Origin: a virus
Lineage: Duplodnaviria > Heunggongvirae > Uroviricota > Caudoviricetes
DNA length: 13,947 bases
IMG/VR virus record: IMGVR_UViG_641522650_000013
Strand: one strand, 5' to 3'
The translations under genes were made by a program, and so were the position numbers. The notes below the pieces were generated by a model. That model did no database searches. It had not been told where the DNA came from and saw only the letters and a program-made list of their open reading frames with translations. This document shows positions 3,358-8,554 of this stretch, piece after piece. Position 1 is the stretch's first letter, and the number at the start of each line of letters is the position of its first letter.

Positions 3358-3788
3358 TGGAAAAGAAAAACCGCCCATTACAGGCGGCTAATTCAGATAT
3401 TCGCGTATCTGATGTTACGCCCCTTACAAAATCCCTTCAAGCACCAAAGCGCACACCGAAAAAGCATCGTGCCAGAGTCTATATGCTGCGTACTGGTATA
3501 GAGGGATGGACAGAAAATGACATTCTGCGTTATTGCCGCCTTTCGTCTGGAAGGAACTACGCCAGCGAGTTAGAGCGCAGGCTTGATATTCAGCTTGAGC
3601 GTATAGACGAAAAGAACCCCGACGGGATAGGGCCACATTTACGCTATCGCTTTACCGGGCGCGGTGACGTTCTAAAAGTTATTCGGCTTGTGAACCATAA
3701 CGCCGACGCTGGCGGCTATCAGGGACTTTCTCAGCCTGAAATTGCCGACATTCTCAATCTATACCCGGACAATCTCACCGCCGCATAA
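3357..3788 (+). CDS. Hypothetical protein, 143 aa, translationally coupled to alpA
   Basis: ORF with start overlapping the alpA stop; basic N-terminus; no family recognised. Confidence 0.6.
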   Translation: MEKKNRPLQAANSDIRVSDVTPLTKSLQAPKRTPKKHRARVYMLRTGIEGWTENDILRYCRLSSGRNYASELERRLDIQLERIDEKNPDGIGPHLRYRFTGRGDVLKVIRLVNHNADAGGYQGLSQPEIADILNLYPDNLTAA

Positions 3789-3801
3789 CGGAGCCGAAAA
3801 T

Positions 3802-4419
3802 ATGACTATCGAAAAAAGCCGATTCAGTTCGGGGGCCGCCCCGCAACCCAACGTTAACACGGGAGTAATTAACGGCAACGACTTTGCCGCTATTGTTCCC
3901 GTTATTGCCGGACGCATTGGCGGGCGTGAAGCCAATATTGTGAGCGCTAAGGCGTTGCATAAAGCGCTGGGGGTGGGCCGCGACTTTACTAACTGGATTA
4001 AAGGCCGAATTGACCAGTACGGTTTTATTGCCGGAACCGATTTTATCCGTGTTGAAAATTTGAGCACGCCAAAACGGGCGAGCGCAAAAACTCGCCAGCA
4101 AATAGAGCATGATTACCTGCTATCGCTGGATATGGCTAAAGAAGTGGCAATGGTTGAACGCAACGAGCAGGGCCGCGCTATCCGCCGTTATTTCATCCAG
4201 TGCGAGGAAGAATTACAGCGTAGCGTGCCTGAAATCGCCGCCCGCTATCGTCGCCAGCTAAAAGCCCGTCTCAGTGCCGCAAACAACTTTAAGCCAATGT
4301 GCGATGCGCTGAATATGGCCCGTGCCGAGATGGGCAAAACGACGCAGCAGCGCCACTACAGCAACGAGAGCAACATGATCGCCCGTATCGTGCTGGGTGG
4401 CATGACGGCGAAGCAGTGA
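3802..4419 (+). CDS. Phage antirepressor, AntA-domain protein
   Basis: Start ATG 3802 preceded by GGAG; contains KALHKALGVGRDFTNWIKGRIDQYGFIAGTDF and LSLDMAKEVAMVERNEQGRAIRRYFIQCEE, typical AntA/antirepressor motifs. The ORF-track start at 3742 overlaps the previous gene and is less likely. Confidence 0.75.
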   Translation: MTIEKSRFSSGAAPQPNVNTGVINGNDFAAIVPVIAGRIGGREANIVSAKALHKALGVGRDFTNWIKGRIDQYGFIAGTDFIRVENLSTPKRASAKTRQQIEHDYLLSLDMAKEVAMVERNEQGRAIRRYFIQCEEELQRSVPEIAARYRRQLKARLSAANNFKPMCDALNMARAEMGKTTQQRHYSNESNMIARIVLGGMTAKQ

Positions 4420-4458
4420 GCGCAGGCAAATGGCATTACTGGCGAACCACGGGACAGC

Positions 4459-4611
4459 ATGAACGCAGCACAGCTTGAACACCTCGCCTATCTCGAAAGC
4501 ACCAATATCACGTTAATTGATATGGGCATGGAATATGAGCAGCGCAAAGGAGAACTCACCCGCCTGTCGCAACGCTGGCTCGCTAAACGTCTGGAGGTAA
4601 ACCATGCGTAA
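4459..4611 (+). CDS. Possible small ORF (50 aa)
   Basis: ATG-initiated ORF not in the track (under 60 aa); its stop overlaps the start of the next ORF (ATGCGTAA). Weak SD. Confidence 0.3.
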   Translation: MNAAQLEHLAYLESTNITLIDMGMEYEQRKGELTRLSQRWLAKRLEVNHA

Positions 4612-4786
4612 CCACAATCCGATGCCGGGAAGCCGTTACAAGGATTCGCACGGGGCTGTAGTGACCGTTGAGCGCGTCGAGCATAACCGAGTGACCTTTT
4701 ACCGCGAGGGCTATCAGTCGCCATGTGTTCAGCCTTTGGAGAGATTCGTTAATGAGTTCGTGGAGGTGCGCCGTGATACTGAATGA
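4604..4786 (+). CDS. Small hypothetical protein (60 aa)
   Basis: GGAGG 6 nt upstream of ATG 4604; product MRNHNPMPGSRYKDSHGAVVTVERVEHNRVTFYREGYQSPCVQP... resembles short conserved prophage proteins, family not confirmed. Confidence 0.5.
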   Translation: MRNHNPMPGSRYKDSHGAVVTVERVEHNRVTFYREGYQSPCVQPLERFVNEFVEVRRDTE

Positions 4787-5073
4787 ACCTGCCGCCCAGA
4801 AAGAAGCCTTTAATCTGGCTGGCCTGTTAACAAATGTTAACCCTTACAACCTTATAAAACCTGATATTGATACCGCAGCGCCCGGAGTTCCGTTACCAGT
4901 ACGCGAGGCGCTTACCCTCAACAAAAAGATGGTGAGCCGTGCACAGGAAAAACTCTTAAAGGGTTACGGTTTTATCTGGTATGACCACCTAGCAGAGAAA
5001 AGCTGTTATAGTTCAAGCGTTGCTGCAAAATCAGCAACCGGGCGTGGAAACCCGAACACACTCAGGGCGACAC

Positions 5074-5096
5074 AGACGCCGAAAGCGTCTTTTTTT
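5074..5096 (+). terminator. Rho-independent terminator (6-bp GC-rich stem AGACGC/GCGTCT, loop CGAAA, then T6)
   Basis: Read directly from the sequence; lies inside the apparent ORF 4725-5561, arguing that ORF is not one real gene. Confidence 0.55.
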
Positions 5097-5146
5097 GTGT
5101 CCGATCACTACGCACATCAAATCAGCGGCCTAGTCCGTACTGTATC

Positions 5147-5229
5147 AATGGTGGCGTTAGTGGGGCTACGTTCGCGTAGGCCGGTTTCCTTTGTGTCCGG
5201 TATTTCCACCCCTGCTAACGTCACCGCCA
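5147..5229 (+). ncRNA. Candidate structured antisense RNA (P1 C4 / P4 CI-like) upstream of the icd-like gene
   Basis: Closing stem 5149-5165 with 5206-5227 (about 14 bp, one mismatch, one bulge); inner hairpin CTACG-UUCG-CGTAG (5166-5179); second hairpin CCGG...CCGG (5181-5200) whose loop holds TCCTTTGTGT (5187-5196), perfectly complementary to ACACAAAGGA (5266-5275) across the icd-like SD. Boundaries approximate. Confidence 0.4.
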
Positions 5230-5285
5230 TTTCAGAGCGTGGAAACTCAGGCGGTGACTCCTTAAACACAAAGGAGGCTGCCGCT

Positions 5286-5541
5286 ATGCTGGCTACTACC
5301 CCTACCCAAAAACCGCAATTTATCTGGATTATCGCCGCAGTTCGCCGCGATTGCCCGACAATTACCGCCAAAATTCATCATATTGCTGCCGAGTCTGAAC
5401 GCGATGCTCGCCGTTCTCTGGTGCGCGATCACGTCTGCTTTTTTGCTGGTCGTATCCGCATGGAGGTGGTGAAGTGGCACACTGAATTTGGCCACCTGAA
5501 CAGAGGTGATATGCTCACCTCAGAACAACACAGGTGCTCCA

Positions 5542-5561
<20 letters not shown>
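5286..5561 (+). CDS. Icd-like (host cell division inhibitor-like) small protein, C-terminus replaced by IS911-derived sequence
   Basis: Strong SD AAGGAGG 8 nt upstream of ATG 5286; product [57 protein letters not shown]... resembles Icd-like proteins as I recall them. IS911 begins at 5470, so residues after ...RMEV come from the IS. Reconstructed native end is ...RMEVAHD (61 aa). Confidence 0.55.
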
Positions 5562-6710
<1,149 letters not shown>

Positions 6711-6725
6711 CCACTTCAGTGGCAC

Positions 6726-6944
6726 ATGATTAAAACCTACGATGTGCATATGGATCCCCTCGAACGCACAAGCCAGATCATCACACTGACAGAAGTGATT
6801 AATGACATTCTGGTGAGCAACTCTCCCTCACGAGACGAAAAACTGAAGGCGTTACTCGCGATATTGGATCTCGCCGTTCGTGACGTTCATTTCCTGCTGG
6901 AAGGTGGCGAAATGTCAGGAAAACGGGGGGCAACCAATGAATAA
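6726..6944 (+). CDS. Small hypothetical protein (72 aa), first gene of a coupled small-ORF operon
   Basis: ATG 6726 lies 7 bp after the IS911 end; its reconstructed native SD (GGAGG) is now on the other side of IS911. Stop overlaps the next start (ATGAATAA). Confidence 0.5.
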   Translation: MIKTYDVHMDPLERTSQIITLTEVINDILVSNSPSRDEKLKALLAILDLAVRDVHFLLEGGEMSGKRGATNE

Positions 6945-7131
6945 CTCAATTAATACCCCTCGCCTTACGTCCGCACTTCAATTAATCGAGCAAACAGCGG
7001 CTGTCCTGGTTGCTGTCAGTCTTTCGGCTGAAGAAATGGACGCTGCTGATGTCGTGGATGCGATTAAAGCGTGCTCATCTTTGGTTAACGATGCCCGTGC
7101 AGAGCTGGTAATTCTTGGGGGTGAAAAATGA
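6937..7131 (+). CDS. Small hypothetical protein (64 aa)
   Basis: Start overlaps the upstream stop; stop overlaps the next start (ATGA). The track's upstream start at 6880 is less likely. Confidence 0.5.
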   Translation: MNNSINTPRLTSALQLIEQTAAVLVAVSLSAEEMDAADVVDAIKACSSLVNDARAELVILGGEK

Positions 7132-7391
7132 ATATCAACTTAATTTATCGTCATCCGTGTGAGCTGGAAATTGAATCATTGCTGGGGCGCGAAGAGCCAT
7201 ATCCAGACACATTCACTCCCGCAGATTGCGCGACTGAACGGCTTACCAGAGCGCGCACAGGTCTGGTTCATGTGATGAATGAGATTGTTCCCTCGGTGGG
7301 AGGGGAACAGGCGACAGTAATCAATAGCTGGCTACAAAAAGTTACCTCCCTGATAGATATCAGTTTAATCGATGTGGAGAGTGCGAAATGA
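7128..7391 (+). CDS. Small hypothetical protein (87 aa)
   Basis: SD GGGGGTGA then ATG 7128; ATGA overlaps at both ends. Confidence 0.55.
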   Translation: MNINLIYRHPCELEIESLLGREEPYPDTFTPADCATERLTRARTGLVHVMNEIVPSVGGEQATVINSWLQKVTSLIDISLIDVESAK

Positions 7392-7609
7392 CCAACATCC
7401 AGCTCATTGAAGCGCAATGTCGCATCGAACAGGTTCAGACTGTTTTAGGGTTCTGGCTTGAAGGGGCCAGCCCCAGCAACAGAGACAAGTTAATGATTGG
7501 CGCGGTTATGTCACTGCTCAATGGCGTACCAGAAGCTATTCAGGAAGCTGACGAATTGTTGGGCAAATATGAGTTACAGAATCATTCAGGCGAGGCGAAA
7601 CATGAATAA
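7388..7609 (+). CDS. Small hypothetical protein (73 aa)
   Basis: SD GGAGAG then ATG 7388; stop overlaps the next start (ATGAATAA). Confidence 0.55.
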   Translation: MTNIQLIEAQCRIEQVQTVLGFWLEGASPSNRDKLMIGAVMSLLNGVPEAIQEADELLGKYELQNHSGEAKHE

Positions 7610-8204
7610 TTTCTTAACGTTCCATGCAGAAGCAACGCCTGGCGGCGTAAACATCATGTACCGCAGCAACGATGGCATGACAGAACGCGTTGAGACCGTC
7701 TCATATATTGATGCCGTAAATCGTCTGGATGCCGGGGATTATGACGATAAACCAGATGAAGGCATGTTTATACATCTCGCTATTGCCAGTGGCGGCAACC
7801 AGGGATATTTCGATTACACATCACAGCATCACGTGATTATGTGGCGCTGGCTGATCGCAACAGTATTCATGCTGGAAATGAGAGAGGAAAACGGCACTGT
7901 CAGCATCATTGATGATACTGGCAATCCTTCCGAAGTGGCTGTTTATTCCAACGGCATCGTCGCCATGCCGCTGTATCCAGTAGCAGAGCGCCTCGCTATG
8001 GCAAACAACATTGAGGGCGCGATGATAGAACGTTTTGGCATCGAGTCTGGCACAGAACGCGCCATCATTTTCTACAGAGCCATGATGGATGTGGAACAAG
8101 GAGCACTGACTCCATTTGGTCGTGAAACGCTTGCTGAACTTCACAACAGCTTTATAGCTGAACTGAATGAAAACGGCTGGCCTGAAATGGCGCTGGCGCA
8201 CTGA
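7602..8204 (+). CDS. Hypothetical protein (200 aa)
   Basis: ATG 7602 coupled to the upstream stop; the track's longer version (7497) starts inside the preceding gene. No family recognised. Confidence 0.6.
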   Translation: MNNFLTFHAEATPGGVNIMYRSNDGMTERVETVSYIDAVNRLDAGDYDDKPDEGMFIHLAIASGGNQGYFDYTSQHHVIMWRWLIATVFMLEMREENGTVSIIDDTGNPSEVAVYSNGIVAMPLYPVAERLAMANNIEGAMIERFGIESGTERAIIFYRAMMDVEQGALTPFGRETLAELHNSFIAELNENGWPEMALAH

Positions 8205-8212
8205 GGGGCGAC

Positions 8213-8554
8213 ATGATTACTAAAAATTTCCGACTGAATGCGCTGGCGAATAAGTATGCGGCAGCACTGTATAACCACATTACTTCCACCAGCGGCGGGG
8301 ACTATTTCATGATTGATGCGGACGGCCTCGCCGTCCGTGTGGAAATCGTCAATGGAGTAAAAGGCGTTCGCAGCCTGATTGATAGCTACGCACTGGCAGC
8401 CATGAAAGTGCGCTACCCGCAGTGGGAAATCGTGGGGATCGAGCTTCTTGATCGTTGCGTCACTAAGGACGGATTGACTGACATCGGGCGCGAGATATGG
8501 CAAAGCATGATTAATGATATGGGCGCGACCGTGGCAGGAGGCAACCATGCGTAA
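8213..8554 (+). CDS. Hypothetical protein (113 aa)
   Basis: SD GAGGGG then ATG 8213; stop overlaps the primase start. Confidence 0.6.
   Translation: MITKNFRLNALANKYAAALYNHITSTSGGDYFMIDADGLAVRVEIVNGVKGVRSLIDSYALAAMKVRYPQWEIVGIELLDRCVTKDGLTDIGREIWQSMINDMGATVAGGNHA

Follow-up and report, generated by a model that had tools for sequence, protein, structure and literature searches.

A chain of six coupled small genes in an EcCIMP1-type satellite: a probable P4-plan early operon behind a C4-type RNA switch

Overview

Ahead of the primase-helicase gene in a 13,947-nucleotide (nt) stretch of viral DNA (IMG/VR record IMGVR_UViG_641522650_000013, Caudoviricetes; hereafter the window, meaning this whole stretch) lies a chain of six small plus-strand open reading frames (ORFs) between positions 6726 and 8554, labelled O1-O6 (Table 1). 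We propose that this chain is the middle section of one long, translationally coupled early/replication operon, which belongs to a satellite of the type of EcCIMP1, a phage-inducible chromosomal island (PICI) of Escherichia coli MP1, follows the plan of P4, is controlled by an RNA switch and ends in the primase. We assign this reading a probability of about 0.7. It draws on the conserved frames and coupling of the genes, on an antisense RNA that co-varies with its target at an icd-like ORF upstream of the chain, and on the homology of O5 to the P4 protein Cnr. The operon type itself is already known, and the chain is a variant of it; new here are the link of the chain to a co-varying C4/icd switch, the Cnr homology of O5, an apparently new fold in O6, the mis-annotation of part of the region as 'Ash', and the state of the window copy, cut off by the insertion sequence (IS) IS911 and left with a dead primase.

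Reading frames and their coupling

The first-pass annotation of this DNA had described six ORFs linked by overlapping stop and start codons. All six are present on the plus strand with the sizes it gave, and four of the five internal junctions overlap as described: O1/O2 by the 8 nt of ATGAATAA, O4/O5 by the same sequence, and O2/O3 and O3/O4 each by an ATGA. O5 and O6, however, are separated by an 8-nt gap (TGAGGGGCGACATG). Beyond the chain, O6 runs 8 nt into the primase gene (ATGCGTAA). Purine-rich Shine-Dalgarno (SD) motifs lie 5-10 nt before each start of O2-O6 and of the primase. For comparison we used E. coli relatives and 16 loci from other Enterobacterales, the latter fetched with an O5 profile. 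Across 17 related loci 68 of 91 junctions are overlaps (-4 in 45, -8 in 19) despite differing gene content, and the non-overlapping junctions are nearly all 7-16 nt long, the exceptions being two mis-chained cases.

Against divergent homologues, the ratio of non-synonymous to synonymous substitution rates (dN/dS, by the Nei-Gojobori method) is 0.10-0.40 for O2-O6, with dS saturated. Because of these ratios and of the tight coupling kept across loci, we take O2-O6 to be real protein genes under purifying selection. The earlier view that these are genuine co-translated genes is thereby upheld, less firmly for O1, and the loss of frame in related elements that would have spoken for non-coding DNA was not seen, the frames of O2-O6 being kept across genera.

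The case for O1 is weaker, as it lacks divergent homologues: its 20 protein clusters consist for the most part of a single E. coli/Salmonella sequence in fragmentary or frameshifted versions. Three O1 alleles differ at 8 sites (5 synonymous, 3 non-synonymous), and codons 1-60 hold four synonymous changes against one conservative K39R, a pattern that lends modest support to coding. Its start and stop sit within the same kind of 8-nt overlaps as those of the other chain genes, and it is called as a separate gene of 72 amino acids (aa) in the sister loci L023 and L025. O1 is probably a young gene confined to E. coli and its close relatives. Near its end, a run of six G at 6925-6930 is one G shorter in two sister genomes (L024, 7127-7531; L026, 7126-7530), where O1 and O2 are consequently fused to give a protein of 134 aa; this shortening is a true slippage variant or else an error in sequencing the homopolymer.

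Sequence searches of Pfam, NCBIfam, PADLOC and PDB gave no significant match for O1-O6, and PHROGs holds families for O4, O5 and O6 only, all of unknown function. O1-O5 are acidic, with isoelectric points of 4.2-5.0.

Table 1. Coordinates of the chain and of associated features in the window
Feature	Position	Strand	Remarks
Candidate extended -10 promoter (TGtTATAGT)	5004-5012	+	found by eye; 7 nt before the Rfam isrK start
c4-a1b1 element	5006-5058	+	Rfam RF03163, 54.2 bits (gathering 46.7)
isrK / P4 seqA-like RNA	5019-5095	+	Rfam RF01394, 72.1 bits (gathering 50); overlaps c4-a1b1
C4 / P4 CI-type antisense (immunity) RNA	5144-5231	+	Rfam RF01695, 80.3 bits (gathering 45), full length
C4-loop target ACACAAAGGA	5266-5275	+	overlaps the icd SD (AAGGAGG)
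icd-like ORF	5286-5561	+	IS911 sequence in place of the 3' end; protein 64 aa in its native form, ending ...MEVAHD
IS911	5470-6718	+	1249 bp; transposase genes run in the same direction as the chain; a GTGG duplication at each end
O1	6726-6944	+	72 aa; acidic; first gene downstream of icd
O2	6937-7131	+	64 aa; acidic orphan
O3	7128-7391	+	87 aa; acidic orphan; most widespread small cassette
O4	7388-7609	+	73 aa; acidic orphan; phrog_20558
O5	7602-8204	+	200 aa; phrog_1515; N-terminal extension (~1-72) and probable Cnr/DUF5375-like domain (~73-200)
O6	8213-8554	+	113 aa; phrog_37628; confident alpha/beta model
Primase-helicase	8547-11306	+	Pfam Zn_Ribbon_Prim 5e-16, Toprim_3 2e-14, DUF927 2e-39; nonsense-interrupted
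Iteron field	11330-11595	.	GAGACAACA/TGTTGTCTC, at least 13 copies, both orientations

The C4-type RNA switch upstream of the chain

Upstream of the chain and on the same strand the window holds a candidate promoter, an isrK (P4 seqA-like) RNA with an overlapping c4-a1b1 element, a C4 RNA of the P4 CI type and an icd-like ORF. Within isrK a terminator-like hairpin (5074-5090) is followed by a run of T. The isrK, c4-a1b1 and C4 elements precede the chain in seven of eight related loci scanned, and they occur in P4 as well. Homologues of the icd-like ORF are WP_001304881, named 'host cell division inhibitor Icd-like protein' in RefSeq, and, in P4, the C-terminal portion of the 'cI ORF'; in intact relatives the icd stop codon overlaps the ATG of O1 (ATGATTAA).

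The loop of the second C4 hairpin (UCCUUUGUGU, 5187-5196) is perfectly complementary over 10 nt to the target at the icd SD. Such a perfect match between an 8-10-nt C4 loop and the icd SD region recurs in L001 (loop UCCUUGAUUG, target CAAUCAAGGA), L002 (UCCUUGUAC, GUACAAGGA), L007 (CCAUUCGA, UCGAAUGG), L010 (UCUGUGGAA, UUCCACAGA), L014 (UCCGAUAAC, GUUAUCGGA) and P4 (UCCUGUGAA, UUCACAGGA). Loop and target co-vary, forming six specificity types plus that of P4, that is, seven distinct sequences. This compensatory change is strong evidence that the C4-type RNA controls icd translation and that the lineages are heteroimmune.

The CI RNA of P4 blocks expression of the replication genes via premature termination (PMC4825925), and in the isrK-orf45-anrP system of Salmonella the expression of anrP requires translation of orf45 and AUGA coupling (PMC4825925). 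Neither a sigma-70-like promoter nor an intrinsic terminator was predicted on the plus strand within 6726-8554, and neither repeats nor a hidden RNA were found there. Since no promoter or terminator is predicted inside the chain, and in view of the coupling, the RNA co-variation and the P4 and isrK precedents, O1-O6 and the primase are likely to be the payload of the C4/icd switch.

O5 is a probable remote homologue of P4 Cnr

At 50% identity the O5 family falls into 140 clusters, and most of its members are stand-alone proteins 190-215 aa long. O5 itself has a net charge of -19, ends in a conserved His and shows a dN/dS of 0.10-0.34. Because two of its homologues carried a precomputed flag for PF17345 (DUF5375), we compared the O5 family profile with P4 Cnr. 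Cnr proteins from IMG/VR were too uniform for a profile (all 80 loci shared 93% or more identity with P4 Cnr, and 79 shared 99% or more), and the Cnr family profile was made from four divergent DUF5375 proteins, which are divergent alleles drawn from E. coli genomes. Using hhalign, the O5 family matched the single P4 Cnr sequence with a probability of 91.5% and the Cnr family with 93.7% (E 1.9e-7, score 45.1, 95 columns). Column-shuffled Cnr alignments (n=200) scored 11.3 +/- 2.2 with a maximum of 19.4, the reversed Cnr alignment scored 11.6, and thirty other family-versus-P4 comparisons scored 7-12.

The alignment places O5 residues 73-186 against Cnr residues 6-101; O5 carries a hairpin insertion of 22 residues, and the conserved C-terminal His is common to both families. 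Two Cnr-sized proteins retrieved with the O5 profile (P0398 and P0400) bridge the families, as they match Pfam DUF5375 below threshold with E values of 0.0075 and 0.015; P4 Cnr scores 210.9 bits on that model. O5 itself falls short of the Pfam gathering score for Cnr, whereas its profile-profile homology covers the whole domain. We conclude that O5 is, by this comparison, a remote homologue of P4 Cnr with an N-terminal extension of about 70 residues. Its AlphaFold2 model is poor (predicted local distance difference test score, pLDDT, 52), and the Foldseek matches of that model are meaningless.

Ziegelin et al. are said to have reported in 1997 that P4 Cnr binds alpha. Copy number in P4 is controlled by cnr, and in 90% of P4-like satellites a member of the cnr family is found between 'epsilon' and alpha (PMC8628076). 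By homology, O5 most likely modulates the replication initiator and hence copy number. The first-pass annotation could assign none of the ORFs to a family, which the Cnr homology of O5 corrects; its suggestion that this position holds derepression, helper-interference and replication-control genes is borne out by O5 as far as replication control is concerned, but no epsilon-like or PADLOC-like ORF was found.

A model of the operon

From this architecture we infer polarity, the timing of expression and the functions of the chain proteins as follows. The operon would run from the promoter through the isrK (seqA-like) RNA, the C4/CI antisense RNA, the icd-like ORF and O1-O6 to the primase-helicase gene, with the iterons of the origin after it. 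While the island is quiescent, the C4-type RNA would pair with the icd ribosome-binding site; icd would then go untranslated, translation downstream would not follow, and transcription would be expected to terminate prematurely, as in P4 immunity and in the immI region of P1. With the block removed, ribosomes could move from gene to gene via the overlapping stop and start codons, so that the small proteins and the primase would be made together. The overlaps may in this manner relay the on/off decision taken at icd down the operon. As a Cnr-like protein, O5 would tune the replication initiator and thus copy number, and O6 and its paralogue X123 (see below) may share the superfamily of O5. O1-O4 would be lineage-variable acidic cassettes standing in place of P4 epsilon and orf151, with host or helper proteins as their likeliest targets.

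O6, X123 and their relation to O5

The AlphaFold2 model of O6 is confident (pLDDT 91, predicted template modelling score 0.83) and consists of a helix, a β-hairpin and then three helices. Foldseek searches of PDB and BFVD with this model gave no match (best E 0.37, template modelling score at most 0.35), and the modelled fold is apparently new. In hhalign the O5-O6 alignment reaches 27.1, where shuffled alignments peak at 21.3, and the two have an LTxxGRE motif in common; a paralogue of O6, X123, is present in L002/EcCIMP1 (BLASTP E 3e-4). O6 is possibly a distant paralogue of the Cnr-like domain of O5, and the evidence that O5, O6 and X123 are tandem members of one superfamily is suggestive only. 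We also considered O6 as the counterpart of Cnr by its position and rejected it, given a probability of 0.4% against Cnr in hhalign and the absence of O6 from 5 of the 16 loci; the weak link via O5 remains. An O5-like and an O6-like protein are also encoded by 'Elizabethkingia phage EKP1' (OM284015 H62 and H88; LN997803), an odd host for genes otherwise confined to Enterobacterales, and the O6-like one is 62% identical to its enterobacterial counterpart.

O1-O4 as a cassette array

Among the loci compared, O1 and O2 are restricted to the E. coli type, and O3 and O4 are present in other genera at 40-54% identity. In other genera, 8 loci hold O3 homologues of about 50% identity (dN near 0.4, dS saturated), and O3 is related to a 92-aa family (hhalign 91.6%). 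O2 shows a dN/dS of 0.35 against a 60%-identical homologue in L015, and its only matches are below threshold (Pfam TY-Chap1, 17 bits against a cut-off of 27; PADLOC CARF, E 0.004-0.009). Unrelated families of 65 and 66 aa fill the O1-O4 slots in other elements, and the whole interval from icd to the primase thus reads as a mix-and-match cassette array. The 66-aa family, basic and conserved (MSNFRVIATCFDG...NGWSV...), takes the O4 slot in L005, L007-L009 and L014-L017 (e.g. L007, 5804-6004) and matches no Pfam or PADLOC family. The chain of L015 (Enterobacter adelaidei, 3545-6603) is likewise coupled and includes two tandem O5-type paralogues of 187 and 200 aa; here a 344-aa ORF without an Ash domain, instead of icd, is coupled to the O2 homologue.

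Two ideas about kinship of these proteins were discarded. O1, O2, O4 and the 65-aa family do not qualify as tandem paralogues of one helical-hairpin domain, a resemblance noted by eye (SPSRDEKL versus SPSNRDKL) that gave BLASTP E values of 0.16-0.2 and hhalign probabilities below 5%. Nor is there any signal that one of the ORFs corresponds to P4 epsilon, to orf151 or to the 75-aa family of P4-like elements. O1-O6 do not match the P4 epsilon model in Pfam (PF25738, 'Derepression') at E up to 0.1, where epsilon itself scores 9e-51, and the chain families reach hhalign probabilities of at most 0.3% against epsilon.

Relationship to EcCIMP1, P4 and other known systems

Among 5426 complete E. coli genomes, 569 show a match to at least part of the chain (258 of these over 80% or more of its length) and 490 a match to O1-O2; about 9-10% of the genomes thus carry it. 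EcCIMP1 carries the same chain, with protein identities of 97, 97, 92, 100, 94.5 and 92% for O1 to O6, in agreement with the initial placement of the window in a satellite/PICI-type element. The flanks are also alike, comprising alpA, AntA/B, DUF4222, 'Ash', Icd-like and TOPRIM-DUF927 genes. Unlike the window, EcCIMP1 has X123 as an extra O6 paralogue before the primase, is intact, and occupies a tRNA-Thr site close to proA, the sister copies of the window adjoining yicC; downstream of its primase there are DNA-ejection and DUF2824 genes, which its authors did not count as structural. Experiments have shown that EcCIMP1 is a PICI that excises and transfers only with the P22-like helper Kapi1 and needs alpA for this, and it confers superinfection immunity; its description lists the ORFs of the chain as hypothetical proteins and does not mention an RNA switch (Pick, Stadel and Raivio 2025, PMC11773190).

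Gram-negative PICIs are defined by an integrase, alpA, a primase/rep gene with an adjacent origin, the absence of structural and lysis genes, and helper-dependent excision. Gene content and order in the window lineage agree with this: integrase, alpA, primase-helicase and iterons are in place, and no structural or lysis gene is annotated anywhere between the ends of the island in the window lineage or in L001. The core set of P4-like satellites according to de Sousa and Rocha (2021) comprises int, psu, delta, sid, alpA, 'epsilon/Ash' and alpha. From this set the window lineage has an integrase and AlpA (439 aa with Arm-DNA-bind_3/Phage_integrase, and 67 aa, PF05930, in the sister locus L023) and, by Pfam domains, an alpha-type primase-helicase, though a pseudogene here. 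There is no epsilon, the sole match being that of the Phage_ASH model on the RNA genes. Unlike in P4, a psu-delta-sid module is lacking: none is annotated in the intact L001, and no such Pfam family was found on the called genes of sister loci, relatives that have to serve here because the window ends in IS2 before the right end of the island.

The order and strand logic of P4 (seqA, CI RNA, seqC, icd-like ORF, epsilon, orf151, cnr, alpha) is nonetheless that of the window. Both have isrK/seqA-like and C4/CI RNAs by Rfam, a homologous icd-like ORF, a Cnr-type gene upstream of a Zn-ribbon/Toprim primase-helicase, and iterons; the first small gene of P4, epsilon, overlaps the icd stop by 8 nt, as O1 does in EcCIMP1-type elements. 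Of the C4/CI immunity module, the C4 RNA, the a1/b1 element and the complement of loop and ribosome-binding site with its compensatory variation were all found. The window differs in having six genes, not three, between icd and the primase, none of them homologous to epsilon or orf151; in O5, which is twice the length of P4 Cnr and has an N-terminal extension and an inserted hairpin; in O6, which separates O5 from the primase; and in a helicase part formed by DUF927. Other P4-like islands share this layout, with alpA, an Icd-like gene, a 74-75-aa ORF, DUF5375 and a primase in that order. We conclude that the element is a PICI of the EcCIMP1 type whose early operon is of the P4 type, and that it is not a strict P4-like satellite.

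The immI region of P1 and P7 resembles the window in a C4 RNA loop complementary to the icd ribosome-binding site and in the dependence of downstream genes on icd translation, and the heteroimmunity of P1 and P7 resembles the loop/target co-variation seen here. The c4-icd-ant mechanism of P1 was reportedly worked out by Citron and Schuster in 1990 and by Biere et al. in 1992. In contrast to immI, whose payload is an antirepressor, the window has a replication operon with small orphan genes, and its AntA/B gene lies upstream of the RNA. The isrK-orf45-anrP system of Gifsy-1 resembles the window in its isrK RNA, whose terminator is leaky, in its short leader ORF and in its AUGA coupling (PMC4825925). 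It differs in that IsrK activates in trans, in its antirepressor payload, and in lacking both a six-gene chain and a primase.

Damage to the window copy and neighbouring features

IS911 is missing from the sister loci L023 and L025, which are otherwise 99.9% identical, and copies 100% identical to it occur on Shigella plasmids, annotated as 'IS3-like element IS911 family transposase'. It replaces the last icd codons and ends 7 nt before the ATG of O1, so that the native SD of O1 (GGAGG) is displaced by more than 1.2 kb, and the chain of the window is uncoupled from the RNA switch. In addition, a TGG>TGA change at 9855-9857 truncates the primase-helicase (919 aa in the intact gene of L025); this is one of only three differences from L025 downstream of IS911. 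The window copy of the operon and island is probably disabled and is unlikely to be mobile.

Directly 3' of the primase-helicase gene lies the iteron field, which includes a 31-nt inverted repeat pair. PICIs usually have their origin directly after the primase-helicase gene, and this field is probably the replication origin of the island. The island is full of insertion sequences, and the IS1 and IS2 insertions are common to the sister copies: IS1 follows the integrase, and an IS2-like element forms the right edge of the window (decay regions at about 1700-2470, 3802-4611 and 12674-13947). This abundance of insertion sequences, like the accession series, may point to a Shigella-type background. 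The AntA/B antirepressor gene is apparently truncated: it encodes 205 aa, followed out of frame by a tail of 50 aa, where the L001 gene encodes 277 aa. Next to the single-stranded DNA-binding protein gene, on its downstream side, an ORF of 183 aa (12126-12677) shows only a weak Peptidase_M50B-like motif (HEAGH), and its 3' end abuts the IS2-like element. An int-alpA RNA (Rfam, 60.6 bits) lies just 3' of the integrase at 1329-1395 and is also found in five related loci.

Alternative explanations

Two other readings concern the frames themselves. It is next to impossible that O1-O6 are chance open frames in non-coding DNA: nothing favours this for O2-O6, for which it is already refuted, and for O1 it could appeal to the narrow distribution and the rare frameshift or deletion variants (L020, L024, L026), while the low dN/dS values, the frames kept across genera, the SD motifs, the preserved coupling and the confident O6 model all oppose it. 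Alternatively, O1 might be the C-terminus of a 355-377-aa 'ash family protein', into which RefSeq merges it in many E. coli genomes (as in L002) where it does not leave it unannotated. A single ORF is indeed open from about 900 nt upstream through O1 in L001 and L002, and Pfam Phage_ASH (PF10554) matches this ORF in both. Yet the match corresponds exactly to the isrK and C4 RNA genes (window nt 5007-5319), and in P4 (L003, 8330-8521) it falls onto the CI RNA. Moreover, indels of lengths that are not multiples of three separate the lineages between isrK, C4 and the icd ATG, and the long ORF of the window lineage shares the icd frame and stops before O1, whereas that of L001 and L002 crosses icd out of frame to join O1. 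The icd-like protein is by contrast a conserved frame (98-100% identical), and most relatives lack O1 and have icd coupled straight to O3. We therefore regard the fusion as very improbable; the 'Ash family protein' appears to be mostly a translation of the isrK/C4 RNA genes in a frame not conserved between lineages, and the conserved frames of this region are, on the same comparisons, icd and O1.

Two further readings concern the roles of the proteins. O5 and O6 might be general early 'host-takeover' proteins common to temperate phages, with the likeness to Cnr reflecting a common fold with different partners. O5 homologues at 30-36% identity occur in 36 phage records, and in both contexts examined, phi467 and phiP27, the O5-type gene belongs to the early-left operon and is flanked by the repressor region and xis/int; O6 homologues about 63% identical are found in phi467 and EKP1 with no adjacent primase, and O6 is missing from five of the 16 related loci. 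We nevertheless find this reading doubtful, as the Cnr-like domain spans nearly all of Cnr including the conserved C-terminal His, as satellite O5 and O6 stand directly upstream of the primase like cnr, and as phi467 encodes a Zn-ribbon primase-helicase elsewhere in its genome. About equally doubtful is the proposal that some or all of O1-O4 are effectors of helper-phage hijacking or anti-phage defence, such as epsilon-like derepressors, interference or superinfection-exclusion proteins; it fits the operon model too and concerns protein roles alone. O1 occupies the exact place of P4 epsilon, coupled directly to the icd-like ORF; unrelated small families turn over rapidly between conserved flanks; the proteins are acidic; and the superinfection immunity that EcCIMP1 confers against its helper Kapi1 has not been tied to any gene (PMC11773190). 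Against it, none of the ORFs resembles epsilon, orf151 or the 75-aa family, PADLOC returns nothing better than E 0.004 over O1-O6 and no likeness to a defence protein, a tblastn search of 50,697 phage records finds no match for O3 or O4, and nothing ties any ORF to a target. A derepression or interference role for O1-O4 is thus suggested by position and turnover only.

Several observations weigh against the operon reading that we prefer. The candidate promoter was picked by eye, is not listed by a consensus scan and has a poor -35. L015 has the chain, but no detectable C4, isrK or icd. The link between O5 and DUF5375 consists of the profile-profile match and the two sub-threshold bridging proteins, and O5 and three close homologues match Pfam DUF5375 nowhere, even at E up to 10. 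O6 appears dispensable, since 5 of the 16 related loci fetched lack it and one carries an internally deleted copy. Because homologues of O5 and O6 sit in early-left operons of temperate phages (phiP27, Shiga toxin phages, phi467) with no adjoining primase, their role need not be tied to a P4-type primase; this weakens, without removing, a strict tie to the satellite primase. Finally, co-directional transcription from IS911 could still give low-level expression of the chain in the window. The coupled, RNA-switched operon remains our preferred reading. A more far-reaching version of it joins two propositions, which taken together we hold to be rather unlikely: that O1-O4 and the 65- and 66-aa families of relatives are helper- or host-specific effectors (derepressors, anti-immunity or interference proteins), freed only when a heteroimmune C4-type switch opens; and that O5, O6 and X123 form a broader superfamily with Cnr, made up of regulators of replication initiators, having a fold unseen in solved structures and common to PICIs, P4-like satellites and phiP27-type phages.

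Implications

The early genes of EcCIMP1-type islands are all annotated as hypothetical, and the 'Ash' annotation in Pfam and RefSeq swallows real small genes such as icd and O1. Placing the chain behind a switch and naming O5 as Cnr-like yields concrete hypotheses on how these satellites are kept silent, how they wake and how their copy number is set, and it reduces the candidates for the unassigned functions in superinfection immunity and helper interaction to four small orphans. The co-variation of C4 loops and icd targets further implies that several heteroimmune specificity classes exist among these satellites.

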